This document shows positions 6,298 to 23,792 of a stretch of DNA of 32,000 bases, in pieces. Source of the DNA: Archaeoglobus fulgidus DSM 4304 (lineage in GTDB: Archaea > Halobacteriota > Archaeoglobi > Archaeoglobales > Archaeoglobaceae); the NCBI RefSeq assembly GCF_000008665.1, contig NC_000917.1:30001-62000 (forward strand), in the 5' to 3' direction. Each line of letters opens with the position of its first letter. The first letter of the stretch is position 1. Under the pieces are notes generated by a model. The model saw only the letters and a program-made list of their open reading frames with translations. It did not search any database and was not told where the DNA came from. The position numbers were made by a program, and so were the translations under genes.

Positions 6298-6301
6298 TAT
6301 C

Positions 6302-10080: not shown

Positions 10081-10088
10081 TTTTATTC
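10081..10088 (+). promoter_or_regulatory. Putative TATA box (TTTTATTC) upstream of the first GT4 gene
   Basis: It ends 23 nt upstream of ATG 10111. It is preceded by the small palindrome GCTTC-C-GAAGC (10065-10075). Confidence 0.3.
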
Positions 10089-10110
10089 ATGAAACTCGAA
10101 GTCTCCGAAA

Positions 10111-11196
10111 ATGGAAATAGTATTCGTTTACGACGCTGTTTACCCGTGGACAAAGGGAGGAGTTGAGAGGAGACTTCACGAAGTTGGGAGGAGATTGTCT
10201 AACGAGCACAACGTCAAATGGCTTTGCGTCGGATGGTGGGGAAAGGAGAAAAGAATTCAAGAAGGTGTGGAGTTGATTCCGGTTTGTAAGGCTCAGCAGT
10301 TGTATTCGAGGGGAAGAAGAACGATCAGAGAAGCTATGATCTTCGCAGCGAGTTTGCTTAAAAAATCAAGGATCAAAGCAGACGTTATAGACTGCCAGGT
10401 CTTTCCTTATCTTTCAGTCTTTCCATTTGCAACTAGAAAAGAGCTCGTCCTTACCTGGCACGAGTTCTGGGGGGATTACTGGTACGAGTACCTTGGCAAA
10501 GCCGGGTTTTTCGGAAAGGCTGTTGAAAGGATCGTTGCTAAGCTTAAGGCAAGAACTATCGCTGTCTCCGAGACTACGAGAAAGGCTTTGGAGAGCTTAG
10601 GAATAAGGGCTACGGTAATACCGAACGGCGTCGATTTTCCAAGGATTTCAGAAATCCCAGCCTCTTCCGAGGAGTGGGACGTGATCTTCGTAGGAAGGCT
10701 CATAAGGGAGAAAAACCTCGAACTCCTGTTCGATGCGATGAAACTCCTCCCAGAGCTCAATTGCCTCGTAGTTGGGGACGGTCCTGAGAGAGAAAGGCTT
10801 TCAAAGATCGCCCCAGCAAACGTCGATTTCGGAGGCTCTCTGGGCTACGAGGAGGTGATATCGATGATGAAGAGCTCAAAGGTCTTCGCGATTCCTTCGA
10901 GGAGAGAAGGTTTTGGCATCTCCGCTCTCGAGGCGAACGCCTGCGGATTGCCAGTGGTAACGATTAGACATCAAATGAACGCCGTTGTTGAAATCGCGGA
11001 GAAAACTGGGTTCGTCGCAGAGCCACATGCAAGGGACTTTGCAGAAAAGATAAGGCTCGCATTGGAGATGCGTAGAGAGATGAGGGAGAAATGTATAAAT
11101 TTCGCAAAGAACTTCGACTGGGAGGTGATAGCCAGAAGGCTGGAGGAATTTTATGAAGGTGTCCATAGTCCTCCCAACGAAGGACGAGCAGAATAG
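10111..11196 (+). CDS. GT4-family (GT-B, Glycos_transf_1) glycosyltransferase
   Basis: 361 aa. IFVGRL..EKN and the E-x7-E motif REGFGISALEANACGLPVV. Confidence 0.8.
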   Translation: MEIVFVYDAVYPWTKGGVERRLHEVGRRLSNEHNVKWLCVGWWGKEKRIQEGVELIPVCKAQQLYSRGRRTIREAMIFAASLLKKSRIKADVIDCQVFPYLSVFPFATRKELVLTWHEFWGDYWYEYLGKAGFFGKAVERIVAKLKARTIAVSETTRKALESLGIRATVIPNGVDFPRISEIPASSEEWDVIFVGRLIREKNLELLFDAMKLLPELNCLVVGDGPERERLSKIAPANVDFGGSLGYEEVISMMKSSKVFAIPSRREGFGISALEANACGLPVVTIRHQMNAVVEIAEKTGFVAEPHARDFAEKIRLALEMRREMREKCINFAKNFDWEVIARRLEEFYEGVHSPPNEGRAE

Positions 11197-12262
11197 CATT
11201 GAAAAAGTCGTGAGAGACTGTCTTTCTCTCGGATTTGAGAAGGAGATAATCGTTGTCGACGACTCCGCAGACAGAACTCCTGAGATAGCCGAGAAGCTTG
11301 GATGCAAGGTAATAAGAGGTGTAAAAGGGTACGGAAGAGCCTTTTTGGAGGGGTTTAGACATTCGAGCGGAGATATCATCGTGATGCTCGATGCTGACGG
11401 TAGCTACGATGCGCTGGAAATTCCAAGGCTGATCGAGCCGATTGTTAAAGGAGAAGCTGACCTCGTAATAGGGAGCAGGTTCAAGGGGAAGATAATGCCA
11501 AAGGCTATGCCGTGGCATCACAGATACGTGGGCAACCCAGTTCTGACGAAGCTTACGAATCTTCTATTCAAAACAAAGCTTAGCGATGTCCACAGCGGGA
11601 TGAGGGCTTTGAGGAAAGATGCACTTGCGAAGATCGATCCGGTTTGCCCAGGGATGGAATTCGCAACCGAGCTCGTTTTGAAAGCTGCAATTAAAGGTCT
11701 CAGGATCGTGGAGGTTCCAATCACTTACCATCCGAGAATCGGTTTCAGCAAGCTGAGGAGCTTCAGGGACGGGTGGAGACATCTTAGACTTGTCTTGGCA
11801 GCTTCGCCGATATACCTTTTTCTTTTACCCTCTATAATCCTAATCCTTTTGGGAATAGCAACGGCTCTATTTGTTATAGTTCTGCAACCAATAAGAACGC
11901 ACACTCTAATCTTTGGCTCAACTCTCCTCCTGCTTGGGATCCAGACCTTTTTCTTTGGAGTTTCTGGGAAGATATACCTGAGGCAGATAGGCTTCGGAGT
12001 CAGAGATTGGCTTACCGAAGCTTTCGGAAAATACTCCACAATGGAGAAACTCCTGTTTTTCGGACTCGCTCTCTTGATCCTCGGAACGTACTCTGGTTAC
12101 AGAGTCTTCGCCAGCTGGGTTGAGAGGGGATTCGGGTCGCTTGCCGAGTTCAACCAGGCTTTGGTCTCTTTGATCCTCATAGTCTCCGGATTCCAGATTG
12201 CGATCAGCAGCATTTTCCTCAGCATGTTTCTCCTGAAAGAAGAAAAAGATAATAATAAGTAA
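11153..12262 (+). CDS. GT2-family polyprenol/dolichol-phosphate hexosyltransferase (DPM1/AglJ/AglD-like) with a C-terminal transmembrane bundle
   Basis: MKVSIVLPTKDEQNSI, VVDDSADRT, LDADGSYD (DxD) and a GT-A fold pattern, followed by about 4 hydrophobic helices. GGAGGA (11142-11147) precedes the ATG. Overlaps the upstream GT4 by 44 nt. Confidence 0.8.
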   Translation: MKVSIVLPTKDEQNSIEKVVRDCLSLGFEKEIIVVDDSADRTPEIAEKLGCKVIRGVKGYGRAFLEGFRHSSGDIIVMLDADGSYDALEIPRLIEPIVKGEADLVIGSRFKGKIMPKAMPWHHRYVGNPVLTKLTNLLFKTKLSDVHSGMRALRKDALAKIDPVCPGMEFATELVLKAAIKGLRIVEVPITYHPRIGFSKLRSFRDGWRHLRLVLAASPIYLFLLPSIILILLGIATALFVIVLQPIRTHTLIFGSTLLLLGIQTFFFGVSGKIYLRQIGFGVRDWLTEAFGKYSTMEKLLFFGLALLILGTYSGYRVFASWVERGFGSLAEFNQALVSLILIVSGFQIAISSIFLSMFLLKEEKDNNK

Positions 12263-14044
12263 GTGACACCCGTAGGCATGGATAGGAAGTCGCTCTCTCT
12301 CCTAATTCTGATAGTTCTCCTCGGTCTCTGCATAAGGCTTCAGAACTTCGGAGAGATATTCGACTCGAGAATTTACTACTACGGATACGACCCCTACTAC
12401 CACATGAGGCTCGTGGAGGCGATCGTTCTGGAGGGCTACCGCCCCTCTTTTGATTACTACATAAACTATCCATACGGTCTCAGAATAGACTGGCTCCCCC
12501 TCTTCGACTACATTCTGGCTTTCCCTGGACTATTTCTCGGTTTCTGGGCATCGGAAATTTTCGCGGTCGTTTTTCCGGTGATCATAGGAGTCCTTTGTAT
12601 AGTCCTGGTCTACCTTATCTCCCTCGAAGTTCTCAGGAACGAGAAGTTCGCGCTGATTTCTGCCTTCATATTCTCAGTCTGCCCAGTGACAGTTTGGAAG
12701 AGCCTGCTCGGAAAAGCTGACCACCACATCTGGGTCGTCTTCCTTCTTCTGCTGTCGATCTGGTTGGTAACGAAGCCTGGACTTTTAAAGCTACTTTCCG
12801 GTATTCCGATGCTCCTTATGGCTCTTTCCTGGCTCGGGGCTCCGATATACGCAGCCCTGCTCGCAGTATCTTCGCTTTTTCAATTCAACGAGAAGGAGGT
12901 CAGAATCGTGGGTATCTCGAATCTGATTCCAGTACTTTCATCGATTCAGAATCTCTTCCTCGGATTCTCTTTTCTCGCGATAGCAGTATTTTTACTGGTC
13001 GGCAGCTTTGTAAAGAGGTTTGAGAGAAGGTTCAGGTATGCGATCGTTTACTACCTTTGCATCTGTTCGGTCGCTTTGCTCTCAGCCTACCTCATGCCCG
13101 TGGGTTGGCTGGGCTTCGTGAAGAGCGGAATCAGTTATGTGCTCGGCACAGACATTTATCTGCCGACAATTCGGGAAGCGAGGTCCTTCCAGATTCTCGG
13201 AGTTATCTCGAGCGCTGGATATCTTTTCTTCGTTCTCGCAATCCCTGCACTATTCATGCTCAGAAACGGATTCCTAAAGGTCTTCTTCGTTCTATCCTTT
13301 CTCATTTCGATTCTTCAGCTGAGATTTGTCGAGGTTCTTGCGTTTCCAGTAGCGATTCTTGCGTCTTATACGATTTGCCAGATTTTGGAAAGAGTTGATT
13401 ATCCTGTTTTCCGGAAAGAAGAAGAGGGGGAAAGTAAAAGAAGGGGAAGAAAAGAGAAAAAGAAAGCAGTTGAAATTAGGAAGAAAGATCACGCGACCGT
13501 GATTGCTTTTTTACTCTTTTTAGCCTTGCCTTGCTTCGCCAACTCCTTGGCTCCGGTGGAAATGACTATGGACTGGAAAGAGGCTCTGAACTGGATGAAA
13601 GAGAATCTGGAAGCACAGGATTATCTCAAAGCTTACGAAAAGCCAGATTACGCTGTGCTGAGCTGGTGGGATTATGGGAACTGGATTCTCTACGTTGCCA
13701 AAAAGGCTGTCGTCTGCAACAACTTCCAGGCTGGAGCTGATGATGCTGCGAAGTTCTTCACAGCACAGAGCGAAGAAGAGGCGATGAAGATCGTTGAGAA
13801 AAGAAAAGTTAGATACGTCGTTACTGTAGAGGAGCTGACTGTGAAGCCGGAAACTAACAAGACGAAATTCATCCCGATAATGCAGATCGCTGGCTACAGT
13901 CCAGAGTACATGAAAAATAAGGAAATAATTGATTTCTTCAACAAAACCATGCTTTACAAGCTCCACGTCGAGAACGCAACCAATTTGACGCACTTCAGGC
14001 TCCTGAAAAATTTCGGAACTGTGAAAATCTTTGAAGTTAAGTGA
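12263..14044 (+). CDS. aglB: Archaeal oligosaccharyltransferase AglB (STT3 family), short paralogue
   Basis: Polytopic N-terminal domain with YDPYYHMR (first acidic motif) and PTIREA (TIXE motif). The C-terminal domain has SWWDYGNW (WWDYG) and DDAAKF (DK motif). GTG 12263 directly follows the upstream TAA. ATG 12278 (MDRKSLSLLIL...) is an equally plausible start. Confidence 0.9.
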   Translation: MTPVGMDRKSLSLLILIVLLGLCIRLQNFGEIFDSRIYYYGYDPYYHMRLVEAIVLEGYRPSFDYYINYPYGLRIDWLPLFDYILAFPGLFLGFWASEIFAVVFPVIIGVLCIVLVYLISLEVLRNEKFALISAFIFSVCPVTVWKSLLGKADHHIWVVFLLLLSIWLVTKPGLLKLLSGIPMLLMALSWLGAPIYAALLAVSSLFQFNEKEVRIVGISNLIPVLSSIQNLFLGFSFLAIAVFLLVGSFVKRFERRFRYAIVYYLCICSVALLSAYLMPVGWLGFVKSGISYVLGTDIYLPTIREARSFQILGVISSAGYLFFVLAIPALFMLRNGFLKVFFVLSFLISILQLRFVEVLAFPVAILASYTICQILERVDYPVFRKEEEGESKRRGRKEKKKAVEIRKKDHATVIAFLLFLALPCFANSLAPVEMTMDWKEALNWMKENLEAQDYLKAYEKPDYAVLSWWDYGNWILYVAKKAVVCNNFQAGADDAAKFFTAQSEEEAMKIVEKRKVRYVVTVEELTVKPETNKTKFIPIMQIAGYSPEYMKNKEIIDFFNKTMLYKLHVENATNLTHFRLLKNFGTVKIFEVK

Positions 14045-14092
14045 TTCCTTGAAGTTCTCTCTTTAAATGCTCAACAGCCCTCTTTTGCGGTT

Positions 14093-14806
14093 TTAAAGAT
14101 AGCCCTCAAGTACTTTTCCAGGTTCACCTATAGCTTTTACAGTTCCAGCCTCGATCAACATGACTCTATCGCACAACTCCAGTAAAGTATTTGGAGAATG
14201 GGAAACGAGGACTATCGTGGTTCCATTCTGTTTTAACTCCCTAATTCTGCCTATACACTTTCTTTGGAAATAGATATCACCGACGGCTAGAACTTCGTCG
14301 ATCAGGAGAATTTCAGGCTCAGTTGCTACTGCTGTTGCGAATGCTAGCCTTGCATACATACCAGATGAGTAGTTCTTGAGCTTCATGTTTTTGAACTTTT
14401 CAAGTTCTGCAAACCTGAAGATTTCTTCAATCTTACTTCTTATTTCCTCCTTACTCATACCCATAATGACTCCGTAAAGGTAAACGTTCTCCTTAGCCGT
14501 TAACTCTGGATTGAAGCCCACACCGAGCTCAAGAATTGGTGTGACCTTTCCAGAAACACTTAAACTACCAGTGTCAGGATAAAGAATTCCGGCAATTATC
14601 TTGAGGATCGTGGATTTGCCCGAGCCATTTGGTCCGAAGATTCCGAATGTTTCGCCTTTTTTTACTCTGAAGCTTACATCCCTGAGTGCCCAGAACTCTA
14701 CGAAATCTCTTTTACCTTTAAAAAATGCTGAGAGCTCTTCAAATAACGTAAACCTTTTCTCGCTTGGTATTCTGAACTTCTTCGATATCCCCTCAGCCTC
14801 TATCAT
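14093..14806 (-). CDS. Polysaccharide-export ABC transporter ATPase (Wzt/TagH/KpsT/RfbB type), no C-terminal carbohydrate-binding extension
   Basis: Walker A GPNGSGKST, signature YSSGMYARLAFA (typical of this subfamily), Walker B ILLIDE and H-loop VSHS. 237 aa. Confidence 0.85.
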   Translation of the reverse strand: MIEAEGISKKFRIPSEKRFTLFEELSAFFKGKRDFVEFWALRDVSFRVKKGETFGIFGPNGSGKSTILKIIAGILYPDTGSLSVSGKVTPILELGVGFNPELTAKENVYLYGVIMGMSKEEIRSKIEEIFRFAELEKFKNMKLKNYSSGMYARLAFATAVATEPEILLIDEVLAVGDIYFQRKCIGRIRELKQNGTTIVLVSHSPNTLLELCDRVMLIEAGTVKAIGEPGKVLEGYL

Positions 14807-15567
14807 AGAACTTCACCAAATCTCTTCTGCATTCTTCTAAAAAACAACTGACCAGCAAAGGTGAGTGCAAGAGATATTAATAAAAAGTAAATAAATTTTT
14901 CCAGCAAAATTTGATTTTCCATCAAAATTCCACGGTAGATTTCAATGATGCAAGCAATTGGATTGAGCATGTACATTTCTCTGTAGCTTTCGGGGATCAT
15001 TGTGAGCGGATAGACTATTGGACTTGCAAAGAATATCACATTAGTTATGACCTCCCAGATCTGGTTTAAATCCCTGAAGTAAACCATCAGAGAGGAGAGA
15101 AATAAGTTTAGACCAAATATAAAAATTATGTAGACAAAATGAATAACTGGGAGGAAAAGGATCGTAAAACCGACATTTCCACCCAAAACGTGCACTATAG
15201 GGACGATTACGAGTATTTCAAGGAAGGAACTCATGCCGTAAGAAAGAGTCGTCGCGAGAGGTAAGAGTTCCCTATCGATGTTCGTTTTTGTAACTAGGTG
15301 AGACTTACCAACGATTGTGTGCATTCCAACAGACGTCGCCACCTGGAAAAATCTAAACACAAACACTCCTACCAAGACGTATGCGGCGAAATTCTCGACC
15401 CAAGAGAACATATTTCTGAAAACCAGAAACAAGACGAGTGCCAATAAAAAAGGAGCTAAGAGGCTCCAAATCAAACCTAGAGCCGTGCCTCGGTATCTCT
15501 GCTTAAACTCAAATTGAGTCATGGTGATTATGACATCTCTTTTTCTCAAATATCCGGACATACCCAT
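14803..15567 (-). CDS. ABC-2 type polysaccharide-export permease (Wzm/TagG/RfbA type)
   Basis: 254 aa with about 6 hydrophobic helices. FKQRYRGTALGLIWSLLAPFL is typical of the N-terminal ABC-2 motif. The ATGA overlap with the ATPase gene (14803-14806) suggests translational coupling. Confidence 0.85.
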   Translation of the reverse strand: MGMSGYLRKRDVIITMTQFEFKQRYRGTALGLIWSLLAPFLLALVLFLVFRNMFSWVENFAAYVLVGVFVFRFFQVATSVGMHTIVGKSHLVTKTNIDRELLPLATTLSYGMSSFLEILVIVPIVHVLGGNVGFTILFLPVIHFVYIIFIFGLNLFLSSLMVYFRDLNQIWEVITNVIFFASPIVYPLTMIPESYREMYMLNPIACIIEIYRGILMENQILLEKFIYFLLISLALTFAGQLFFRRMQKRFGEVL

Positions 15568-15601
15568 AGACTGAGCTCAATGTTTTTAAACTTAGAGCAA
15601 A

Positions 15602-15609
15602 ATTTTTAA
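15602..15609 (+). promoter_or_regulatory. Putative TATA box (ATTTTTAA) for the GT4/GMD-like/tri-GT4 operon
   Basis: It ends 22 nt upstream of GTG 15631, in the 63-nt divergent spacer shared with the permease gene. That spacer also holds TTTAAAAA on the minus strand at 15583-15590. Confidence 0.3.
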
Positions 15610-15630
15610 TCAGCTTCGCTAAGGCAGGCT

Positions 15631-16722
15631 GTGAAAATTTGCGTTTTTCACGACTACTTCGGAGCAATTGGAGGTGGGGAGAAGGTTGCGCTGACAATCT
15701 CGAAGCTCTTCAACGCAGACGTAATCACAACCGACGTCGATGCAGTTCCAGAGGAGTTCAGGAACAAAGTTATCAGCTTGGGTGAGACGATAAAGCTGCC
15801 ACCTTTAAAGCAGATAGACGCTTCCCTTAAGTTCTACTTTTCTGACTTTCCAGATTACGACTTCTACATACTTTCTGGAAACTGGGTAATGTTCGCCTCG
15901 AAGAGGCACATTCCTAATCTCTTATACTGTTACACTCCTCCAAGAGCTTTTTACGATCTCTACGGAGATTACCTAAAAAAGAGAAATATTTTGACGAAGC
16001 CCGCTTTTATATTATGGGTAAAGTTTCACAGGAAATGGGCTGAGAGGATGCTAAAACACATAGATAAAGTCGTTTGCATCTCGCAAAACATAAAAAGCAG
16101 ATGCAAAAATTTTTGGGGAATCGATGCCGAAGTCATCTATCCGCCTGTGGAAACTTCGAAGTTTAAGTTCAAGTGCTACGGAGACTTTTGGCTTTCTGTA
16201 AACAGAATTTATCCAGAAAAAAGGATAGAATTGCAGCTTGAAGTTTTTAAAAAGTTGCAAGATGAGAAGCTTTACATCGTTGGCTGGTTCTCAAAGGGGG
16301 ATCATGCGGAGAGGTACGCGAGAAAGATTATGAAAATAGCTCCAGACAACGTTAAGTTTTTGGGAAGTGTCAGTGAAGAAGAGTTGATCGATCTATATTC
16401 TCGATGCAAGGGTTTGCTATGCACAGCTAAGGATGAGGATTTTGGACTTACACCTATTGAGGCAATGGCTTCTGGAAAGCCTGTAATCGCCGTAAACGAG
16501 GGTGGTTTTAAGGAGACTGTTATAAACGAAAAAACAGGATATCTCGTCAATGCAGATGTTAATGAGATAATTGATGCAATGAAAAAAGTTTCGAAAAATC
16601 CTGATAAATTTAAGAAAGACTGTTTTAGAAGGGCAAAGGAGTTTGACATTAGTATATTTAAAAACAAGATAAAAGATGCGATAAGAATCGTAAAGAAAAA
16701 TTTTAAAAACAACACATGCTAA
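15631..16722 (+). CDS. GT4-family glycosyltransferase
   Basis: GTG start, [20 protein letters not shown]-x7-E motif [18 protein letters not shown]. Confidence 0.8.
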
Positions 16723-17969
16723 AAAACGGCATGAGGCTTGCTGAGGGTACAAGAGCTTTAATTACCGGCGTTACGGGGTTTGTCGGGTCTTACTTAGCTA
16801 AGCATTTAATAGAGTTAGGAGCAGAAGTTTATGGAATTGTGAGAAGAAGGGCGGATTGGTCCCCGCCCCAAAATCTCATAAACATGGGAATTCTTAATGA
16901 CCCTCATTTGCATTTGATTGAGGGGGACTTGTTGGATATTACCTGCCTTGCAAAAGCTTTGGATGTTGCCGAACCGGAAGTTATATTTCACCTCGGAGCG
17001 CAATCTTTTGTTCCCCAATCTTTCATAAATCCCGTGGAAACTATGCAGATAAACTGCATCGGCACGCTAAACTTACTCGAAACTGTTAGGATTAAGGATT
17101 CAGATGCGGTTATCGTTTTTGCAGGTTCGAGCGAGGAGTACGGGTTGGTTATTAGTTCTGAAAAGCAGTACGAGAGAATTAAGGCTTCCGGAAGAACAGT
17201 TTTTCCCGAACCCGAAAAAATTCCAGAATTGCCAATAAAAGAGACCAATCCACTCAGACCCATGTCTCCTTACGCCGTAAGCAAGGTCTATGGAGACCAC
17301 CTCTTCAGAAATTACTACCACAGCTACGGCCTAAAAACGATAGTTTCGAGGGCGTTTAACCACGAAGGTGCGGGAAGAGGGAAAATGTTTGTGACATCGA
17401 ACATAGCGCTACAAGTTATGAAATTAAAGTTCGGTGAAACTGACAAAATAAAAATAGGGAACGTCAACGCATTTAGAGACTAGAGCCACATCAACGATAT
17501 CGTCAAGGGCTACTGCCTCCTTGCGGAGAAGGGGAGGTACGGAGACGTTTACAACCAAGGTTCTACGAGAACGAACTCCGTTCTTAGCTACATTTTACTT
17601 GCACTCGAAATGGCGGGATACAGAATCGACAAAATAGAAACCTACAAAGGTGAGAAGGTTGTCAAGAACCCGAGCGAGATCGTCGAAGCTAAAATCTTCG
17701 GGGTTAAGTTCGAAGCAACAGTCGTTGACGAGCTGATGCTGAAAGACGAGCTGTCGTTTGAGCTGGAAGATAAAGGAATACTTGTCTTTACAGACAAAGG
17801 TAAGATTCCGGTAGAGTTCGACCCTAACAGATTCAGACCGGCAGAAGTTCCGATACTGCTCTCGGACACAACAAAAGCAAAGGAGATAGGCTTCAGGGTC
17901 AACCACAGCCTCAAGGACATAATCCGCGACCAGCTGAACTACTATTTAGATGCCAGAAGGAGAAAATGA
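16716..17969 (+). pseudogene. GDP-mannose 4,6-dehydratase-like extended SDR, one reading frame interrupted by a single in-frame TAG (17481-17483)
   Basis: ORFs 16716-17483 and 17610-17969 are in the same frame (frame 3), and the sequence between them is open. Motifs: ITGVTGFVGSYL (Rossmann), GSSEEYG, SPYAVSKVYGD (YxxxK). The text reads GNVNAFRD*SHINDIV, whereas E. coli GMD has LGN..RDWGHAKDYV. Confidence 0.75.
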
Positions 17970-20900
17970 AGATACTTATAGACCTTCAACCTGCTCAAGG
18001 TGAAAGCAGATTTCGCGGAATAGGGAGGTATTCGCTAAAAATTGCGGAAGAGATTGTTAAAATAAAGGGAGACGAAGTTTACATACTGCTTAACGACGCC
18101 TTTCCGAGAGAAGCTGTGAAGATTAAATACAGTCTGGGCTTGCCTGAAGGAAACTACCTTGTATTTTCTCCACTAAAAACAATTGCTTTTATCAATTCTC
18201 CAGAAAAATGGAGAGTCGAAGTATCCGAGCTTATTCGGGATCTGGCGATCGCAAGAGTTGAGCCAGATGTTGTTTTCGTTCCAAGCGTTTTTGAAGGCTT
18301 CGTCGACAATATACCGATTTCAATAAAAAAGTTTAGGAACGTGAATACAGCCGTGGTTCTCTACGACTTAATTCCCCTCATTTACCCCCATTTTTATCTC
18401 GCAGATAAAAAAATGAAGCATTGGTATTACTATAGGCTGAATCAGTTTAGAGCAGCTGATGCTTTCGTTGCAATTTCAGAGAGCTCAAAGAGGGAGGGGA
18501 TAGAATATCTGAACCTGAAAGAGGGAGACTTCTGCGTCGCTTATCCAGCACCGAGTGAGTCTTTTAGAGTTTTGGATGAACCCGATGAGCGTGTTCTTGA
18601 AAATTACGGCATCTCTAAAAGGTATTTGCTTTATGTGCCCGGTGGCTATGATTTCAGAAAAAACGTCGAAGCTTTGATATTGGCTTTCGGAAAGTTGCCG
18701 AAAGAAATTAAGGACAAATTACAGCTCGTGATAGCGAGTAAAATTGACGAATACAACGAGAGAAGGCTAAAAGAATTGGCGAGAAAAGTAGGAGCAAACG
18801 TCGTTTTGGCAGGTTATATTAGAGATGAAGACTTAAGCACCTTATACAATCTGTGCGAACTTTTTGTGCACCCCTCTCTACACGAGGGATTCGGATTGCC
18901 GGTTGTCGAAGCGATGGCTTGTGGGGCACCAGTTATAGGTTCAGACTCCTCAAGCATCGCAGAGATAATAAAAAGAAGTGATGCTTTATTTAATCCGAAA
19001 GACATTAATTCGATATCAAGTAAGATCTTGGAAGTTTTGGAGAACGATGAGTTTAGGGAGGAGCTGAGGAGATACGGGCTGAAGAGAGCGAAGGACTTTT
19101 CGTGGAGAGAAAGTGCGAAAAACATATTAAAATTCTTTAAAGAAAAATTCGGATACGGTAAATCTGTCGCTTATTTATTCAGAAAACCAAGAATGGCTTA
19201 TCTATCCCCGCTTCCCCCAGCTCAGAGCGGAATAAGCTATTACAGCTCCGAACTTTTGCCAGAGCTCTCCAAATACTACGAAGTAGAGCTAATCGTAAAC
19301 CAGAATGATGTCTCCGATGAGTATGTAAGAGCCAATTTTCCGATTAGGACGGTAGAATACTTCACCAAGAACTTCAGGAAATACGAGAGGGTTCTGTACC
19401 ATATGGGCAATTCCGAGTTTCATGCCCATATGTGGGAGCTTCTCGAATCATATCCTGGAGTAGTAGTCCTGCACGACTTCTTTTTAAGTAACTTTCTCTG
19501 GTGGGCTAGCCAAGGGAGGCGAGAGGTTTTAGAGAGAGAACTTTTCTTCTCACACGGCTTCAAGGGGCTGATCGATTTAAAGGAGAGTTTGGAAAAGGCT
19601 GTGTGGGAATATCCAATAAACCTCAGAATTCTGCAGAATGCTATCGGAATCATAGTCCATTCGGAACACAGCATAGAGTTAGCAAAAGAATTTTATGAGA
19701 CTGAGAAGGAAAAATTCAGCATAATTCCCCAGATGAGAAAGGTCGAAAAGATAAGAGATAAAAAGGTTGCAAAAAAAGAGTTCGGATACGAGGACGAGAC
19801 ATTTTTGATATGCAGTTTTGGGATAATAGTCAATACCAAAATGACAGAGCTAATTGTCGATGCTTTCTTGTCTTCTTCCTTGCCAGAGAAGGGCTGCGTT
19901 TTGGTCTTGGTTGGAAAGACTTTCGATGATGAATACGGAATTAGAGTCCTCGCGAAGGCGAAAAATAGCGGTGGAAAGGTCAAGGTTACTGGATGGGTTG
20001 ACGAAGAAACCTGGAAGAAATACCTAGAAGCTTGCGATTTAGCCGTTCAGCTCAGAACACTTTCGAGAGGTGAAGTATCGAGAGCGATTCTGGACTGCCT
20101 CGCATTCGGAATTCCGACAATAGCGAATGCTCACGGTTTTATCAAATATCTTCCAAACGAAGTAGTTTATAAGTTATCTGAGAATCCTTCCAAAGAAGAG
20201 TTAAGGGAAGCATTAGAGAGACTCCACGAAGATTCCTCGCTAAGGGATAGAATCTCAAAGAATGCACGGAAATACGTTGAAGAGAACTTAAATCCGAGAG
20301 AGATAGCTAAAAGATTCTATGAGGCGATTGAAAAGTTCTACAGCAGGGTGAACGATTCAGAAATCATTGAAAAGATCTCACAGATAGAGATACCCCGAAA
20401 TGAGAGGTTCTTTGATGAGATCTCAAAACATCTCGAGAAGACTTTTCCAGCATCGCCAAAACAAAGGAAAATTCTTGTCGACGTGAGCGAGATCGTTAAA
20501 GTAGATCGCCACACGGGTATTCAGAGAGTGGTAAAGTCGCTAATCAACGAGCTGTTGTCTATTGCGCCCAAAAAGATTAGGGTGGAACCAGTTTACTTCG
20601 ATGAAAATATTGGTATTTACCGATACGCGAGAAAGTGGGCTGGCAAAATTCTAAACCTTGATTACGAGTTTCTTGACGATGAGCTCGTTGACTTCAGAAA
20701 AGGAGACATTCTGTTATTGCTTGACTTTTACACCTATCAAAATCCCCACAAAAAAGGGATCTACTGGGAACTGAAAGCCTCCGGTGTAAAGATCGTTTCT
20801 GTGGTTTACGATATACTCCCTCTAAAGAGACCCAAATGGTTTATTGATGGTATGAATGAATGGTTCCGGGAATACATAGAGACCTTAGCGGAAATATCGG

Positions 20901-21607
20901 ATAAGATAATCTGTATATCTGAGTCTACAGCCAACGACCTTTCAGAATACTTAAAAAAGGAAAATTTGCTGAGAAGTAATTTAAAGATAACGAGTATTCA
21001 CTTGGGTGCGGAAATCGAAAAGTTCGGCACCAGAGGGCTGCCGGATAACTGGGGAGATCTCGTTAAACTGCTTCAGTCTAAACCAAGTTTTTTGATGGTA
21101 GGAACCATAGAACCGAGAAAGGGACACAGACAGACTTTAAGTGCCTTCGAAATTCTATGGAGGGATGGATACGATGTAAATCTCGTGATTGTTGGGAAGG
21201 AGGGATGGTTAACTCAGGATGTCATAGAGAGGATTAAAAACCATCCAGAGCTAAACAGGAGACTTTTCTGGATCAACAACGCTTCGGACGAATTTCTTGA
21301 CAAAATTTACAGAGCCTGCACAGCTCTGATTATGGCAAGCGAAGATGAAGGGTTTGGGTTACCCATCGTTGAAGCCGCTTACAGGGGATTGTCGATAATA
21401 GCGAGAGATATAAAGGTTTTCCGAGAGATAGCCCGAGACGGAGCGTATTACTTCAGCGGACTAAGACCGGAAGATTTGGCTGACGCCATAAAGTCTTGGA
21501 TGGAGCTGTACAGGAAAGGAGAACACCCGAAGCCTGAAAAAGTTGAGGTTTTGAGCTGGAGAGAGGTTGCAAAAAAGTATCTGAAAGAAATTCTTGAAGA
21601 TTCTTGA
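17966..21607 (+). CDS. Three-module GT4 glycosyltransferase (WbdA/MtfA-like polymerising mannosyltransferase type), 1213 aa
   Basis: Module 1 (aa 1-~400) has HEGFGLPVVEAMACGAPVI. Module 2 starts at about aa 410 (nt 19193) with MAYLSPLPPAQSGISYYS...VVVLHDFF and ends ...GEVSRAILDCLAFGIPTI. Module 3 starts at about aa 835 (nt ~20468) with ILVDVSEIVKVDRHTGIQRV...EDEGFGLPIVEAAYRGLSII. An ATGA overlap joins it to the upstream gene. Confidence 0.85.
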   Translation: MKILIDLQPAQGESRFRGIGRYSLKIAEEIVKIKGDEVYILLNDAFPREAVKIKYSLGLPEGNYLVFSPLKTIAFINSPEKWRVEVSELIRDLAIARVEPDVVFVPSVFEGFVDNIPISIKKFRNVNTAVVLYDLIPLIYPHFYLADKKMKHWYYYRLNQFRAADAFVAISESSKREGIEYLNLKEGDFCVAYPAPSESFRVLDEPDERVLENYGISKRYLLYVPGGYDFRKNVEALILAFGKLPKEIKDKLQLVIASKIDEYNERRLKELARKVGANVVLAGYIRDEDLSTLYNLCELFVHPSLHEGFGLPVVEAMACGAPVIGSDSSSIAEIIKRSDALFNPKDINSISSKILEVLENDEFREELRRYGLKRAKDFSWRESAKNILKFFKEKFGYGKSVAYLFRKPRMAYLSPLPPAQSGISYYSSELLPELSKYYEVELIVNQNDVSDEYVRANFPIRTVEYFTKNFRKYERVLYHMGNSEFHAHMWELLESYPGVVVLHDFFLSNFLWWASQGRREVLERELFFSHGFKGLIDLKESLEKAVWEYPINLRILQNAIGIIVHSEHSIELAKEFYETEKEKFSIIPQMRKVEKIRDKKVAKKEFGYEDETFLICSFGIIVNTKMTELIVDAFLSSSLPEKGCVLVLVGKTFDDEYGIRVLAKAKNSGGKVKVTGWVDEETWKKYLEACDLAVQLRTLSRGEVSRAILDCLAFGIPTIANAHGFIKYLPNEVVYKLSENPSKEELREALERLHEDSSLRDRISKNARKYVEENLNPREIAKRFYEAIEKFYSRVNDSEIIEKISQIEIPRNERFFDEISKHLEKTFPASPKQRKILVDVSEIVKVDRHTGIQRVVKSLINELLSIAPKKIRVEPVYFDENIGIYRYARKWAGKILNLDYEFLDDELVDFRKGDILLLLDFYTYQNPHKKGIYWELKASGVKIVSVVYDILPLKRPKWFIDGMNEWFREYIETLAEISDKIICISESTANDLSEYLKKENLLRSNLKITSIHLGAEIEKFGTRGLPDNWGDLVKLLQSKPSFLMVGTIEPRKGHRQTLSAFEILWRDGYDVNLVIVGKEGWLTQDVIERIKNHPELNRRLFWINNASDEFLDKIYRACTALIMASEDEGFGLPIVEAAYRGLSIIARDIKVFREIARDGAYYFSGLRPEDLADAIKSWMELYRKGEHPKPEKVEVLSWREVAKKYLKEILEDS

Positions 21608-21609
21608 AG

Positions 21610-23031
21610 TTATTTCTTGGCTATGATAGCATAATCCTGAGGACCAAATAATATCCTGTTTAACTTCTCGATATTTTCGTTGATAACTCTGATAACTTCC
21701 TCTGACACAGTGTTTGAATCAATTTTGGCAAGTTTAGTCAATTCTTCGCACTCTTCGAAGAATTCGATTTTTACGTCTCTAAACCCCAGGTATTCGAGAA
21801 TGAACTTAAGAGTCTCTGGATGTACTGGTTTTTTATGGGTGGGATCGATATAGAAGTTTATGAGAGAGTAGAGTGAAGTCGGGTTGGGGGACTCGATAAC
21901 AATGTAACTCGAGTATTTCATTTTCGAGTAACAGAGACTCAAAAGCTCAAAAAGTCGTTCGGGGTCGAGATGCTCCACAAAATGTGATATCATGACTCCG
22001 TCTAAGTATTTATCAGGAAGAGATTTTAGATATTCTATGGCGTCGGATTTTACCACGTTGAACTTGCCCTCGCAGAATTTTATCATGTCCTCATTGATAT
22101 CTACACCAATTGACTCTATTCCCTCTTCTTTACAAAGCTCTAGAAATTCTCCTCTTCCACATCCGATATCCAACACCCTTCTACAACCTTTAAAATAGGG
22201 AATATATCTTCTAAGTCGAGCTTTCACGAGCTCTCTACTTCCTCTGAATTTTTCCTCAAACAAAAAGTAGTAATCAGAAGTGTGAATGTCGGTCCCCGAA
22301 ATTTTCTCTTCAGCGGTGTCAATTTTTGCTTTAATTGATTCAACTGTGCTCGATAATTCCTCAAGGTTTTTTGTCAAACTATTTTTAAGCTCGTAAAAGT
22401 CCGTTTGGAGTTTATCGTGATTAATCATAATTTTATCTTTGAATTCTTTGAACTCATCTTTTCTTACGGTCCCCGAAATTTTCTCTTCAACGGTGTTCAA
22501 TTTACCCTCGATCGCGTCGTTTTTGCTTGATAGCACCCTTAGATCCTCTGTCGTTCTGTTGAGTATTCTCACAACACTTGCGTTGAACTCTCTCTGCAGA
22601 TGGAAGATTGGATCAACGTATCTCCTAACTTCGCCATGAACCAATCTCCTACCCCGAACAAGAAATGGCCCCAAAATTTTTCTGTGAGAAAAGATTTGAT
22701 ATCCTTCATTATTTACATTCCAACGTTGATTAATAATGGCCAAATCTTGATCCAAGTTTTCAGGAGGAAGTCCTCCATTGAAGCACGTCTTGATTTTTTT
22801 AAAAAACCGCCCAGAATTCTGAAAACTCGTTTCAGGTTCGAATACATTGCTTAAATTAGCTGCTGGAATTAAGAACTCTTTTGGAATTAAAAACTCTTTT
22901 ATTTTCTGAAGCTTAGGGCTACTGTCTAAAATTCTTTTTGCCAAATTATAAAGATACCTGTTCGAAACAGCAAATTCAAAGCAAGCTCTTTTTAATTTTT
23001 CTTTCATCTTCATAAACTGTCTCTTTTCCAT
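21610..23031 (-). CDS. Coiled-coil class I SAM-dependent methyltransferase (O-antigen chain-terminating methyltransferase-like)
   Basis: FEEKFRGSRELVKARLRRYIPYF followed by VLDIGCGRGEF (SAM motif I) and ISHFVEHL. It is preceded by about 100 aa of heptad-like sequence containing a duplicated EEKISGT motif. It is convergent with the tri-GT4 gene, with only 2 nt between the two stop codons. Confidence 0.8.
   Translation of the reverse strand: MEKRQFMKMKEKLKRACFEFAVSNRYLYNLAKRILDSSPKLQKIKEFLIPKEFLIPAANLSNVFEPETSFQNSGRFFKKIKTCFNGGLPPENLDQDLAIINQRWNVNNEGYQIFSHRKILGPFLVRGRRLVHGEVRRYVDPIFHLQREFNASVVRILNRTTEDLRVLSSKNDAIEGKLNTVEEKISGTVRKDEFKEFKDKIMINHDKLQTDFYELKNSLTKNLEELSSTVESIKAKIDTAEEKISGTDIHTSDYYFLFEEKFRGSRELVKARLRRYIPYFKGCRRVLDIGCGRGEFLELCKEEGIESIGVDINEDMIKFCEGKFNVVKSDAIEYLKSLPDKYLDGVMISHFVEHLDPERLFELLSLCYSKMKYSSYIVIESPNPTSLYSLINFYIDPTHKKPVHPETLKFILEYLGFRDVKIEFFEECEELTKLAKIDSNTVSEEVIRVINENIEKLNRILFGPQDYAIIAKK
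22291..22320. repeat. Copy A of a 30-nt intragenic direct repeat (28/30 identical to 22468-22497)
   Basis: ggtccccgaaattttctcttcagcggtgtc versus ggtccccgaaattttctcttcaacggtgtt. The offset is 177 nt, or 59 codons. Confidence 0.9.
22468..22497. repeat. Copy B of the 30-nt intragenic direct repeat
   Basis: See copy A. It encodes the second ..T(A/V)EEKISGT.. motif of the methyltransferase coiled coil. Confidence 0.9.
22864..22899. repeat. 18-bp tandem duplication (2 copies, 1 mismatch) inside the methyltransferase gene
   Basis: ggaattaagaactctttt followed by ggaattaaaaactctttt. It encodes KEFLIP-KEFLIP near the N-terminus. Confidence 0.9.
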
Positions 23032-23058: not shown

Positions 23059-23357
23059 GTCAAAAGCTCATTTAGCGTTCAACTGCATACTCTAAAAGAC
23101 AGCTGCTATCTAATATCCCGTGCATAGGATAAGTAAAGAAGATCAAAGCTCTTTTTAAGGCTTTTTCTGTGTTTAGAGGCTTTTAGCTTTTGGTTAATTG
23201 CAAAAATACACTCTTCAGGAATTTCATAATTTTTCGGAACTCGAGAAACGAATTTGTAGGACTCGGCACTTATTGCAAGACTGAATGTATTTTCAATCGA
23301 TTTCGCTGATTTCGATTTCTCAGCTTCATAGCTCCGAAGCTCAGACTTCAAAGGATC

Positions 23358-23792
23358 GTGCTTGAAAGAGAGACCCAAAGCCTCGAGTATCGAAAGGAAC
23401 AACTGGAGAACAAGGTCGCATGGCTCGAAAAAAGAGTCAAAGAAAAGGAAGAGTTTAAGAAAACGATTCATGCTGAGATAAAGTCGGGAGTAGAACCTGA
23501 GCTGAATAAGCTTAAAGCTAAAGCCGACACGATTTTTGAGGAAGCGAAGAGAGCTACAGAGCTTCGAGACAAGATAGTTGCAGAGATTAAGGAGATTGTC
23601 GAAGTTCTTTCAAAGCTTTTGGAAGCCTCAGAAAAGCTAGAAGGGGAAATAGAAGAAGAGAAAAAAGTTAAAGAGAAGCTGGAGAAAGAGACAGAGGAGC
23701 CGAAAATGGAGCTGTTCAAACCCAGAACGATTTCCCTGCTCGAGGCCATCAAGATCTGGGGATCTCAGACCGAGAAAACAGGAGAGAACTAA
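23358..23792 (+). CDS. Hypothetical Glu/Lys-rich coiled-coil protein
   Basis: GTG start, 144 aa, strongly heptad-like (LEYRKEQLENKVAWLEKRVKEKEE...). The antisense Ser-rich ORF looks like a shadow. No family recognised. Confidence 0.4.
   Translation: MLERETQSLEYRKEQLENKVAWLEKRVKEKEEFKKTIHAEIKSGVEPELNKLKAKADTIFEEAKRATELRDKIVAEIKEIVEVLSKLLEASEKLEGEIEEEKKVKEKLEKETEEPKMELFKPRTISLLEAIKIWGSQTEKTGEN

Follow-up and report, generated by a model that had tools for sequence, protein, structure and literature searches.

The gene block described here, which by sequence identity is the AglB-S2 gene cluster of Archaeoglobus fulgidus (AF_0038-46), lies in a stretch of 32,000 nucleotides that was analysed as a whole (the window). 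The block may well be a two-module N-glycosylation locus encoding one pathway, in which a Wzm/Wzt transporter passes its product to AglB-S2; the probability of this reading is put at roughly 55%. According to the comparative evidence, an Asn-glycosylating enzyme may receive its lipid-linked sugar chain from a Wzm/Wzt ABC exporter of the bacterial type. If this is true, the exporter becomes a candidate, open to test, for the archaeal N-glycan flippase, which has long been missing and which a 2010 review still gave as unidentified.

The first-pass annotation had presented the block as a candidate new system, a designation that has to be withdrawn: the locus was already proposed by Burda and Aebi (1999), who, as cited by Lombard (2016), treated ORF39, ORF40 and ORF43 as a putative N-glycosylation pathway; it was reused by Lombard (2016), and crystal structures are available for AglB-S2 and for the methyltransferase domain. 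A literature search returned no experimental work on the cluster, no explicit Wzm/Wzt-to-AglB model and nothing on what AglB-S2 produces or catalyses; as of 2013, AglB-S1 and AglB-S2 had no known roles (PMC3703281). The novelty here is the comparative evidence, not the locus.

Gene Content of the Two Modules

Every open reading frame and domain named in the first-pass annotation was recovered, at the positions given there, by an ORF check and by Pfam/NCBIfam assignment of all nine genes, its own caveats (a Wzt without a CBM, a methyltransferase without a kinase, a GC step and a stop codon) were all correct, and its parts list fits an ABC-transporter-dependent polymerase/terminator line. The genes form four transcription units of differing orientations.

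Module A (GC 0.465-0.486) starts with GT4a (10111..11196, forward strand), a GT-B glycosyltransferase with Pfam matches to Glycos_transf_1 (134.6 bits) and Glyco_transf_4, which opens the AglB-S2 operon and is AF_0038 by inferred numbering. Its orthologues adjoin GT2-AglB in loci L008 and L009 (66% identity), L005 (50%) and L014 (50%), and L017 holds a 42% match. The AglJ/Dpm1-like GT2 ("Orf39"; 11153..12262, forward; Pfam GT2 110.5 bits) has three C-terminal TM segments (aa 225-243, 252-270 and 337-355) and AglJ as its top NCBIfam match, at 181.7 bits and under the cutoff of 325. This gene adjoins AglB in L001-L005, L008 and L009, and "A. fulgidus Orf39" is placed in the AglJ/AglK/Dpm clade in the analysis of Lombard (2016). 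Its stop codon directly abuts the start codon of AglB-S2 (AF_0040; 12263..14044, forward), a minimal STT3-type oligosaccharyltransferase of 593 aa with STT3 and AglB_core matches, described previously as the 593-residue AfAglB-S2 (PMC3703281). The C-terminal domain (aa 432-593) matches PDB 3VU0 at 100% identity, and all motifs for catalysis and sequon binding are preserved (DPYYH43, D153xH155, TIRE302, WWDYG468 and DDAAK493).

From Wzt through orf121 the GC content is 0.37-0.45. The exporter comprises a Wzt-type ABC ATPase of 237 aa (14093..14806, reverse strand; Pfam ABC_tran 86 bits) and a Wzm-type ABC-2 permease (14803..15567, reverse; Pfam ABC2_membrane 74.4 bits), the genes of which share 4 nt. 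Pfam found neither Wzt_C nor another carbohydrate-binding extension in this Wzt, the top NCBIfam matches of which, TagH (187 bits) and galactan Wzt (183 bits), are both under cutoff; its orthologues in the Archaeoglobaceae-type loci L005, L007-L009, L013 and L014 are 71-80% identical. Wzm contains about six to eight hydrophobic segments and has its closest relatives in Archaeoglobaceae (60-67% identity), named bacterial matches being about 25-30% identical. The divergent intergenic region of 63 nt between Wzm and GT4b (15568..15630) contains two A/T-rich TATA-like boxes, TTTTTAAAC and AATTTTTAATC, recognized by pattern only, and the same divergent layout is found in L007 and L016. GT4b ("ORF43"; 15631..16722, forward; Glycos_transf_1 107.9 bits), a GT-B glycosyltransferase identical to the "A. 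fulgidus N-gly-ORF43-GT" fragments of Lombard, travels with Wzm/Wzt and the methyltransferase (MT): its orthologues adjoin Wzm in L007 (72%), L017 (58%) and L011 (57%), and that in L010 (44%) sits inside a Wzm/Wzt cluster.

The tri-GT4 protein (17966..21607, forward; 1213 aa) gives three independent Glycos_transf_1 matches of 120.8, 57.1 and 96.7 bits, each above the threshold of 26.4, with the EX7E motif "EGFGLP[VI]VE" only in modules 1 and 3. Its family has 2,818 matches in bacteria and archaea, many of about 1,240 aa that align over 100% of the length at 40-45% identity; the Methanothrix orthologue (44%) adjoins an MT, and its locus also holds Wzm/Wzt(CBM), at a distance of about 7 kb.

The MT (21610..23031, reverse) carries a C-terminal class I SAM-MT domain (Methyltransf, aa 267-420), and its residues 244-473 are 100% identical to PDB 3DLI. 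A helical spacer of about 100 aa (141-245) precedes this domain; the AF2 model gives it two long helices (141-185, 192-245), and the stretch has heptad-like periodicity. In the family alignment A2 the N-block (aa ~100-150) is conserved and the middle is variable. Within the spacer lies a duplication (22290..22532, reverse) of two 66-nt copies (repeat family D1, 74% identity), 177 nt (59 codons) apart, which correspond to "...EEKISGT" peptides at aa ~174-188 and ~233-247. Several MT homologues are labelled "O-antigen chain-terminating methyltransferase" by JGI; sequence comparison detected no specific similarity to WbdD(O9a). The small protein orf121 (23106..23471, reverse), with a hydrophobic segment at aa 18-36 and no Pfam match, is where the low-GC island ends (GC 0.383 versus 0.51 in the next gene), and whether it belongs to the system is uncertain.

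The Rmd/GMD-family SDR between GT4b and the tri-GT4 gene (16716..17969, forward) is a single frame with one TAG at 17481-17483 and a likely ATG start at 16731. The earlier description "GMD-like" is right as to the SDR family, but the protein is slightly nearer Rmd than GMD, because its best solved match in the PDB is Rmd 2PK3 (175 bits, with "GSSEEYG" in common) and true GMDs score 157-163 bits. In the sister contig L016 (88.4% nt identity, colinear), the SDR is intact (412 aa, 84% aa identity) and has Trp where the window has a stop (TGG>TAG). The reported stop codon is therefore present but, against the intact L016 copy, represents a single strain-specific nonsense change and not general decay. 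To judge from this codon, the SDR is inactivated in the A. fulgidus strain sequenced, so that the glycan would lack deoxyhexose, or the pathway may be impaired, in this strain.

The nonsense codon, which suggests relaxed selection in this strain, the low GC and the silence of the literature on AglB-S2 could also point to a cryptic or decaying island, acquired horizontally and silent in normal growth, while AglB-L alone serves the glycoproteome. This explanation is somewhat doubtful, because the remaining ORFs are all intact and tightly packed with start/stop overlaps, the AglB-S2 motifs are preserved, and a single substitution could have arisen recently in the laboratory or in the strain, or be an error of sequencing. 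Moreover, the cassette is conserved and intact in the 88%-identical relative, where module B appears to be under selection (L016 being colinear with its SDR intact), and the explanation concerns activity in one strain, not the nature of the system.

Complementarity and Conserved Linkage of the Modules

The absence of a Wzx/MOP flippase and a Wzy polymerase, first noted for the block, extends to the whole window: profile searches across the 32 kb found no MOP/Wzx, Wzy, PNPT, Bac_transf or WaaL-type genes. Module A encodes the lone lipid-priming enzyme and the lone enzyme for transfer to an acceptor, module B the lone translocase, and the two modules complement each other. The PMI-like gene reported upstream is indeed a class I phosphomannose isomerase (7450..8349, reverse; TIGR00218 274.6 bits, cutoff 116.2) and could supply mannose precursors; it is not contiguous with the block, as unrelated PCMT and CobS genes intervene.

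A. profundus and two MAGs of Archaeoglobaceae share the core of GT4a-GT2-AglB-S and Wzm/Wzt, but in them a rhamnose-type cassette replaces the mannan-type one. L008 and L009 have the layout of the window, Wzm>Wzt> <AglB<GT2<GT4a (identities: AglB 61%, GT2 61-62%, GT4a 66%, Wzm 63%, Wzt 76%), and a cassette of RmlABCD, GT2s and an MT-GT fusion. In A. profundus the same core is all in one cluster, and L014 stops at GT4a-GT2. In Methanosarcina thermophila (L017, to which eight further places are similar), an AglB of 831 aa stands, divergently oriented, beside the GT4b-like gene (58%), Wzm and a Wzt with Wzt_C, and the block also holds a further GT4 and an MT of the same family (45%), flanked by Wzt(CBM) and a two-module GT4; this arrangement is an independent second lineage with a long AglB. 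Because the same core recurs with a different glycan cassette, the link between Wzm/Wzt and the oligosaccharyltransferase is probably not accidental. The GC step between the halves, which had been taken to mean that their adjacency might be secondary, is real and shows that module B was acquired or exchanged on its own; given the conserved linkage with swapped cassettes, it argues for cassette replacement rather than accidental juxtaposition.

Co-occurrence of Wzm/Wzt with aglB was thus found in Archaeoglobaceae and Methanosarcina but not in six other sampled archaeal loci (L007, the sequence of which ends 1.4 kb upstream of Wzm, L010-L013 and L015), where no STT3 lies within about 10 kb of Wzm/Wzt, so that the exporter is not obligatorily tied to an adjacent AglB. 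Such clusters, including those of Methanothrix and Methanocella, would be expected if the block were a "glycan island" of two independent systems, an AglB-S2 operon making a short N-glycan with an unlinked flippase and a Wzm/Wzt exporting a separate product. The separate product would be an exopolysaccharide, a capsule-like polymer, a biofilm matrix or a lipoglycan. The opposite orientation of the genes, their separate promoter-like regions and the GC discontinuity at the AglB/Wzt junction agree with this view, as does L013, in which a GT4a orthologue and Wzm/Wzt are accompanied by a non-STT3 multi-TM protein in AglB's stead. Independence is nevertheless unlikely: module B lacks its own initiating lipid-sugar transferase and module A a translocase, their adjacency outlasts a full change of cassette chemistry across Archaeoglobaceae and reappears in Methanosarcina with an unrelated long AglB, and a random gene has, by rough estimate, a chance of only a few per cent per genome of lying within 10 kb of an STT3.

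Proposed Pathway

In the single pathway favored here, of which the enzymatic steps and sugar identities are predictions from the gene content, module A, whose GC is typical of the genome and which Archaeoglobaceae conserve, would supply both ends. GT2 would be the initiating Dol-P-hexose synthase, priming dolichyl phosphate on the cytoplasmic face, GT4a would be the adaptor glycosyltransferase that lengthens the Dol-P-hexose primer, and AglB-S2 would move the finished glycan onto Asn of N-X-S/T sequons outside the cell. Module B (Wzm/Wzt, GT4b, SDR, tri-GT4 and MT), a presumably exchangeable low-GC cassette, would supply the middle. GT4b, as a putative WbdB/WbdC-like adaptor mannosyltransferase, would complete the adaptor, and tri-GT4 may polymerize a chain of mannose type, each module making one linkage, as those of WbdA(O8) do. 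The Rmd/GMD-like SDR would, in relatives with an intact copy, give a 6-deoxyhexose (the GDP-6-deoxyhexose branch). The MT, on its spacer, may cap the non-reducing end by O-methylation and so terminate growth, and the CBM-less Wzm/Wzt ABC-2 transporter would carry the Dol-P-linked glycan across the membrane and hand it to AglB-S2. To our knowledge, known Wzm/Wzt substrates are Und-PP-linked, not Dol-P-linked.

The earlier proposal of a methyl-capped polymer of regulated length stays conjectural: Wzt has no CBM, and hence cap-gated export is not expected, and the MT does not specifically resemble WbdD(O9a); a short oligosaccharide fits equally well. A CBM on Wzt is present in every terminated OPS example described in a paper from the Whitfield laboratory. 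An integrated route to a short, defined, methylated oligosaccharide, which the MT decorates and for which Wzm/Wzt is the LLO flippase, would agree with the small size of nearly all characterized archaeal N-glycans (e.g., the hexasaccharide of Methanothermus fervidus), with the lack of cap-gated export and with an MT spacer of only about 100 residues that consists of a 59-residue duplication and might double back into a hairpin, but is improbable, since tri-GT4 is 40-45% identical over its full length to a large family typical of ABC-dependent polysaccharide loci, the three-module WbdA(O8) is a polymerase, the spacer-bearing MT family is conserved and carries the chain-terminating label, and the Wzt of the Methanosarcina and Methanothrix versions has a Wzt_C CBM. 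Each tri-GT4 module would, for such a product, act once or a few times.

Comparison with Known Systems

The proposed polymer route differs from that of E. coli O8/O9a in that Wzt lacks a CBM, the MT has no detectable WbdD homology and a reversed domain order, priming is assigned to an AglJ-like GT2, and the route ends at an N-oligosaccharyltransferase. Tri-GT4 shares the three-module architecture of WbdA(O8), a documented polymerase. Two systems are counted as precedents for the proposed route: the N-glycan of M. fervidus, an oligomannose capped with 3-O-methyl-mannose (a hexasaccharide with two 3-O-methyl-mannoses; PMC2952790), and the S-layer O-glycan of G. stearothermophilus, which combines an adaptor, a polymerase, a methyl cap, Wzm/Wzt and an OTase (PMC2943079).

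Organization of the glycan block

The gene coordinates and domain content described for the block in the first-pass annotation were all reproduced by the ORF map, Pfam and NCBIfam, and when the HMM and structure assignment that it had proposed was carried out, Pfam and NCBIfam agreed with every gene label in the block. The forward strand begins with a GT4 (GT4a, 10111-11196; Pfam), an AglJ-like GT2 with three hydrophobic segments at its C-terminus (11153-12262) and an STT3/AglB protein (AglB-S2, 12263-14044; PF02516 and PF22627), whose genes overlap or abut. The reverse strand then carries a Wzt-type ATPase (14093-14806; PF00005, 86 bits) and the ABC-2 permease Wzm (14803-15567; PF01061, 74.4 bits), which overlap by 4 nt. 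A second GT4 (GT4b, 15631-16722; Pfam), an SDR (16716-17969) and a 1213-aa protein of three GT4 modules (tri-GT4, 17966-21607) follow as overlapping genes on the forward strand, and a 473-aa methyltransferase (MT, 21610-23031) is convergent on the reverse strand. The packing of the genes suggests four transcription units (GT4a-GT2-AglB, Wzm-Wzt, GT4b-SDR-tri-GT4 and MT), and an A/T-rich TATA-like element, a sequence pattern only, lies ahead of each putative unit.

The first-pass statement that the block has no Wzx flippase or Wzy polymerase holds in domain scans for the whole 32-kb window: no MOP/Wzx, Wzy, PNPT, Bac_transf or Wzy_C/O-antigen-ligase domain was found among the scanned window ORFs of at least 80 aa. 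The PMI-like gene reported upstream is indeed a class I PMI (7450-8349, reverse strand), but it is not contiguous with the block, as PCMT and CobS genes intervene. Farther upstream, the region 4894-7453 encodes an HMG-CoA-synthase-like protein (467 aa) with a fused C-terminal zinc-ribbon and OB-fold (ChsH2/DUF35-type), and the next ORF, a thiolase, is listed as overlapping it by about 98 nt; in other archaea, a separate protein usually serves as the DUF35 scaffold for the thiolase/HMGCS complex.

Per-gene GC splits the block into two modules, so that the initial caveat about a GC difference between the AglB half and the exporter/polymerase half was correct. Module A (GT4a-GT2-AglB) has a GC of 0.465-0.486, with flanks of 0.48-0.545, and module B (Wzt, Wzm, GT4b, SDR, tri-GT4, MT and orf121) forms an island of low GC (0.37-0.45) some 9.5 kb long. 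A classical integrated element was rejected for lack of any tRNA, Rfam match, flanking direct repeat or integrase in the window around the island, and homologous cassette replacement is a more likely origin than an integrated mobile element. At the distal edge of the island, the approximately 770 nt between orf121 and a C25 peptidase gene (23472-24241) are of intermediate GC and contain only short overlapping ORFs, and no tRNA, Rfam match or repeat was found there. The Peptidase_C25 (gingipain-family) protein just beyond (24242-25483, reverse strand) has an N-terminal hydrophobic signal-like segment and is possibly secreted, with no sign of a tie to the glycan system.

Oligosaccharyltransferase and putative priming GT2

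In its C-terminal domain, the AglB is 100% identical to PDB 3VU0, the protein of which is AfAglB-S2 (AF_0040, 593 residues), one of the two shortest oligosaccharyltransferases (OSTs) known, whose role was stated as open in 2013 (PMC3703281). AglB-S2 keeps D43, D153/H155, TIRE, WWDYG and a variant DK motif, the last described in the same paper (PMC3703281). Because these catalytic and sequon-pocket motifs are kept, AglB-S2 looks like a competent, sequon-recognizing N-OST. The GT2 matches AglJ as its best NCBIfam model (181.7 bits, under the cutoff of 325), and it was placed, as Orf39, in the AglJ/AglK/Dpm1 clade by Lombard 2016 (PMC4973528). Adjacency of GT2 and AglB was also seen in four short loci, too short to reach Wzm/Wzt, in a genome contig scan with a single AglB protein.

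Lombard 2016 lists a pathway of "putative N-glycosylation in A. fulgidus" with ORF43 and Orf39, citing Burda & Aebi 1999, and its alignment sequences "N-gly-ORF40-Stt3" and "N-gly-ORF43-GT" are the AglB and GT4b of the window (PMC4973528). On the strength of this cited source, the cluster has been a candidate N-glycosylation locus for more than 25 years, and the first-pass label of a candidate new system is overstated, because publications have dealt with the locus, and with the role suggested for it, since 1999. In that early work, Burda and Aebi are said to have indicated an rfb-type ABC transporter as a possible flippase. The full-text literature search found no experimental study of the A. 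fulgidus AglB-S2 locus, no report of AglB-S2 activity or product, and no paper that links Wzm/Wzt with AglB or gives a polymerase-terminator reading in archaea. The archaeal N-glycan flippase was listed as unknown, after failed candidate deletions, in a 2010 review (PMC2952790), and no archaeal translocase of lipid-linked oligosaccharides (LLOs) identified since then was found in the literature beyond MOP-type candidates.

Exporter, SDR, polymerase candidate and methyltransferase

The top NCBIfam matches of Wzm and Wzt are polysaccharide and teichoic-acid exporters, all under their equivalog cutoffs. The Wzt has 237 aa and no PF14524 match, as expected from the earlier remark that it has no carbohydrate-binding extension, and its Archaeoglobaceae orthologues (227-246 aa) likewise have no carbohydrate-binding module (CBM). 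The Wzt_C module is present in the Wzt of Methanothrix (399 aa) and Methanosarcina (416 aa). In the Methanosarcina and Methanothrix versions, export gated by the cap is plausible; in the A. fulgidus version it is not.

The SDR, first described as GMD-like, is of the same family, but among solved structures it matches Rmd best (2PK3, GDP-6-deoxy-D-lyxo-4-hexulose reductase; 175 bits), which outscores true GMDs (157-163 bits), and the safe label is Rmd/GMD-family. The active-site string GSSEEYG is identical in the SDR and Rmd 2PK3, and no partner enzyme for the SDR is encoded in the block. The stop codon reported in this gene is a single in-frame TAG (17481-17483), at an alignment position where GMD has the W of RDW and Rmd the F of RDF. 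The SDR of a close sister contig (L016) is intact (412 aa, 84% identical) and has Trp at the TAG codon, which makes the TAG one TGG>TAG change peculiar to this strain or sequence. It is not evidence for decay of the whole system.

The description of the 1213-aa protein as three GT4 modules was borne out, since it has three separate Glycos_transf_1 modules and each third exceeds the threshold by itself. Its family comprises 2,818 matches at E<=1e-20; many of the matches listed, from diverse bacteria and some archaea, measure about 1,240 aa and share 40-45% identity along the full length. The EX7E motif, EGFGLP[VI]VE, is found in modules 1 and 3 only. The protein is a putative polymerase, in which one module may serve each linkage.

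Over residues 244-473, the MT has 100% identity with PDB 3DLI, entitled "SAM dependent methyltransferase from Archaeoglobus fulgidus". In the proposal of a coiled-coil SAM methyltransferase as the cap enzyme, the methyltransferase domain and a helical region of about 100 aa stand, but no specific similarity to WbdD(O9a) was found. In the AF2 model (mean pLDDT 69.9), residues 141-185 and 192-245 are helical, with pLDDT of about 70-79. Both helices go back to an internal duplication of 59 codons: a 66-nt direct repeat (22290-22355 and 22467-22532, reverse strand; 177 nt, or 59 codons, apart; 74% identical) encodes repeated "...EEKISGT" peptides inside the helical spacer, which indicates that the spacer was lengthened by duplication. 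Family members also differ in spacer length (430-505 aa in most of them). Should the spacer serve as a molecular ruler, internal duplication would be a simple route to altered length.

In the family alignment, a strongly conserved N-terminal block (aa ~100-150) precedes the variable helical middle and the MT domain. This block (nt ~22580-22735) is conserved upstream of the spacer in 25 of 25 aligned members, has no Pfam family, contains the invariant residues N108, Y111, S115, H116, G121, R128, G133, E134, R137, Y138, D140 and Q146, and is modelled with low confidence by AlphaFold; it is a candidate docking site for membrane or polymerase. Several homologues of the MT are labelled "O-antigen chain-terminating methyltransferase" by JGI. 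Membership in the WbdD family was rejected because phmmer, Foldseek and a PDB search with the family profile showed no similarity beyond that generic to class I methyltransferases: the family profile matches WbdD(O9a) at E = 0.1-0.19 in the SAM motif only, and WbdD is not among the Foldseek top 50.

Linkage of Wzm/Wzt with AglB in other archaea

The linkage comparison covers 12 contigs, a small and phylogenetically related sample, in which the mixed contexts indicate that Wzm/Wzt beside aglB paralogues, the comparative check proposed at the outset, is frequent but not universal. By rough estimate, a random archaeal gene has an STT3 gene within 10 kb in a few per cent of cases, and the observed frequency is well above this value; glycan genes tend to cluster in any case. 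The best Wzm match in the protein-database search, in which the window proteins have no exact self-match, is 95% identical; the closest relatives are archaeal, at 60-67% identity in Archaeoglobaceae, other archaeal or unnamed sequences go down to about 41%, and named bacterial matches lie at about 25-30%.

Two Archaeoglobaceae MAGs (L008/L009) carry Wzm and Wzt convergent with an AglB (589 aa), GT2 and GT4a (Wzm>Wzt> <AglB<GT2<GT4a), the same junction as in the window, with identities to the window of 61% (AglB), 61-62% (GT2), 66% (GT4a), 63% (Wzm) and 76% (Wzt). The AglB of this type is about equidistant from AglB-S1 and AglB-S2 (253 vs 269 bits). The cassette of both MAGs is of the rhamnose/GT2 type, as in A. 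profundus (L005), where AglB (601 aa), GT2 and GT4a stand at one end of a cluster that continues with RmlA, an intein-containing RmlB, RmlD, RmlC, two GT2s, Wzm, Wzt, a 1164-aa MT-GT2-GT2 protein and a YfhO-family protein. The GC step is absent in L008 and L005 by per-gene GC. Another Archaeoglobaceae-type locus (L014) mirrors the A. profundus arrangement, and its contig stops at GT4a-GT2. The close sister contig (5.5 kb; 88.4% nt identity) is colinear with window positions 14083-19408 and has an intact mannan-type cassette.

The mannan-type cassette is not confined to Archaeoglobi. Methanosarcina thermophila (L017, the one listed among at least nine similar places) has a long-type AglB (831 aa) divergent from and adjoining a GT4b-like gene (58%), followed by Wzm, Wzt with Wzt_C, an MT (45% identical over aa 90-473), a GT4 of two modules (774 aa) and one further GT4. 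In Methanothrix thermoacetophila, an MT lies directly upstream of a 1261-aa tri-GT4 (44% full-length), with GT4b (57%), Wzm and the Wzt_C-bearing Wzt nearby, and no STT3 was found within 10 kb of this Wzm/Wzt locus. No STT3 was found within about 10 kb of Wzm/Wzt in L007 (contig ending about 1.4 kb upstream of Wzm), L010, L012, L013 and L015.

These loci have further features of their own. In L013, which has Wzm/Wzt, an MT-GT2 fusion, a GT4a orthologue and no STT3, a 614-aa membrane protein (17891-19735) whose N-terminus is multi-TM and whose C-terminal domain is soluble occupies the position expected for GT2-AglB; it was rejected as a divergent AglB, with no BLAST similarity to AglB and no Pfam match, and may be an alternative transferase. 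The RmlB-like dTDP-glucose 4,6-dehydratase of L005 (3633-6146, 837 aa) has an Intein_splicing domain between its two SDR halves, and the orthologues in L008 and L014 (329-333 aa) are without it. In two related loci, L005 (6179-6827) and L014 (4193-4841), the rhamnose-biosynthesis operon is split between RmlB and RmlD by a gene pair for a MazE-like antitoxin and a PIN-domain toxin. In the same two loci (L005 11499-17558; L014 9508-15534), Wzt is directly followed by the MT-GT2-GT2 fusion of about 1165 aa and then by the YfhO-family (GT-C-like) membrane protein of about 840 aa, which hints at an extracytoplasmic modification step in rhamnan-type archaeal clusters. Methanocella conradii (L010) has two Wzm/Wzt pairs less than 8 kb apart in one glycan cluster (10001-11568 and 17600-19132), the second followed by a Methyltransf_21/RfbT-like and GT4 fusion protein, which suggests two ABC-dependent glycans from one locus.

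Proposed pathway

Of the two modules, only A would supply a lipid-priming enzyme and a transferase to the final acceptor, and it has no translocase; only B would supply a translocase, and it has neither an initiator nor a ligase. The GT2 and GT4a would set the reducing end that the OST must recognize. Across the loci, GT2, GT4a, the OST and the exporter are kept together and what changes between mannan and rhamnan types is the chain-building cassette, and the arrangement recurs beside a non-orthologous long AglB in Methanosarcina. A single pathway is favored because the modules are complementary, the conserved core fits the biochemistry and the arrangement recurs; the proposal that the block works as one functional unit is supported by conserved synteny and module complementarity. 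The same conserved/variable organization, with low-GC variable parts, is found in O-antigen and S-layer glycan loci (PMC2943079).

In the fullest form of this proposal, to which we give slightly less than an even chance (about 0.45), Wzm/Wzt are the missing LLO translocases for one euryarchaeal branch (Archaeoglobi and Methanosarcinia) and deliver polymerase-built, methyl-capped, O-antigen-like Dol-P chains to AglB, resulting in serotype-like, cassette-swappable polysaccharides N-linked to the surface proteins of these archaea. The length-regulated, methyl-capped polymer proposed at first pass is partly upheld, by the three-module GT and the MT with its helical spacer, but the Wzt has no CBM and the MT no specific WbdD(O9a) match. 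A live alternative is that the product is a short methyl-capped oligomannose, as is the N-glycan of M. fervidus (PMC2952790).

What appears to be new is the explicit Wzm/Wzt-to-AglB polymerase/terminator reading, as do the recurrence across Archaeoglobaceae with cassette swapping and the near-complete O8/O9a-like set beside AglB in genetically tractable Methanosarcina. If Wzm/Wzt feeds AglB, a concrete flippase/exporter is named that is open to genetic testing, because the same linkage occurs in Methanosarcina, which has genetic tools. Bacterial polymerase-terminator-ABC logic would then be found in combination with an N-OST of the STT3 type and with a Dol-P primer, the OST substrate range would be widened to long polymers, with thermostable parts suggested for glycoengineering, and the minimal OSTs AglB-S1 and AglB-S2 would gain a role, explaining multiple archaeal AglB paralogues. 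A core that is conserved and a cassette that can be exchanged point to O-antigen-like variation of the archaeal surface, possibly relevant to evasion of viruses or predators, and archaeal surface N-glycans would, if the proposal is true, be the N-linked counterpart of bacterial O-antigens and S-layer O-glycans.

Comparison with known systems

PglK of Campylobacter is a half-transporter with fused TMD and NBD, of another ABC fold class than the ABC-2 Wzm/Wzt pair. The system proposed for the window shares with PglB/PglK an ATP-driven ABC transporter for LLO and a single-subunit STT3 homologue (PMC2952790), whereas the substrate of PglK is a fixed heptasaccharide on Und-PP. With the AglJ/G/I/E/D/B and AglR pathway of Haloferax volcanii and the Agl pathway of Methanococcus, the window has in common the AglB OST, an AglJ-like GT2 as putative Dol-P-hexose initiator, GT genes clustered with aglB and, as a candidate, a methyltransferase for the lipid-linked glycan. 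However, the characterized Agl pathways make short defined oligosaccharides, and their translocase is the MOP/Wzx-like candidate AglR or unidentified (PMC2952790); in those positions, the window has an ABC-2 exporter (Wzm/Wzt) and a multi-module GT of polymerase type.

The slg cluster of Geobacillus stearothermophilus NRS 2004/3a (WsaP, WsaC/D, WsaE/F, Wzm/Wzt and WsaB; PMC2943079) resembles the system proposed for the window in its lipid-linked polymer, adaptor, multi-domain polymerase, O-methyl cap, Wzm/Wzt and protein as en-bloc acceptor, and it is likewise a low-GC cluster; the A. profundus-type cassette, with Rml genes and the 1164-aa MT-GT2-GT2 protein, is WsaE-like in architecture. In slg, the linkage is O-glycosidic via a Wzy_C-type O-OTase (WsaB/WsfB) and starts in a WbaP-type manner on polyprenyl diphosphate, whereas the window has an STT3/AglB N-OST, putative Dol-P-hexose-type initiation and no Wzy_C or Bac_transf. 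The resemblance is probably functional and not one of membership.

Close parallels are in E. coli O8 and K. pneumoniae O5 (and O9a/O3), where WbdA(O8) is built of three GT modules, the cap from WbdD(O8) is a methyl group alone, and a coiled-coil ruler carries the terminators at its distal end. Like these systems, the window has single adaptor-type GT4s (cf. WbdC/WbdB), a three-module polymerase candidate with an architecture as in WbdA(O8), a kinase-less MT on a helical spacer, as for the methyl-only O8 cap, and paired, overlapping Wzm/Wzt genes with no Wzx/Wzy. Unlike O8/O9a, which use WecA on Und-P and end with WaaL and lipid A-core, the window would prime with an AglJ/Dpm1-like GT2 on Dol-P and end with an STT3-type N-OST. 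A Wzt CBM is present in every terminated O-polysaccharide example cited by a Whitfield-lab paper, and CBM-less O2a systems couple export to elongation; the window Wzt has no CBM for a terminal cap, and the order in its MT (candidate docking block, spacer, MT) is the reverse of that in WbdD. Given this reversed order, the weak WbdD match in the SAM motif only and the CBM-less Wzt, the A. fulgidus system probably works like the WbdD/Wzt-CBM quality-control design but is not a member of it.
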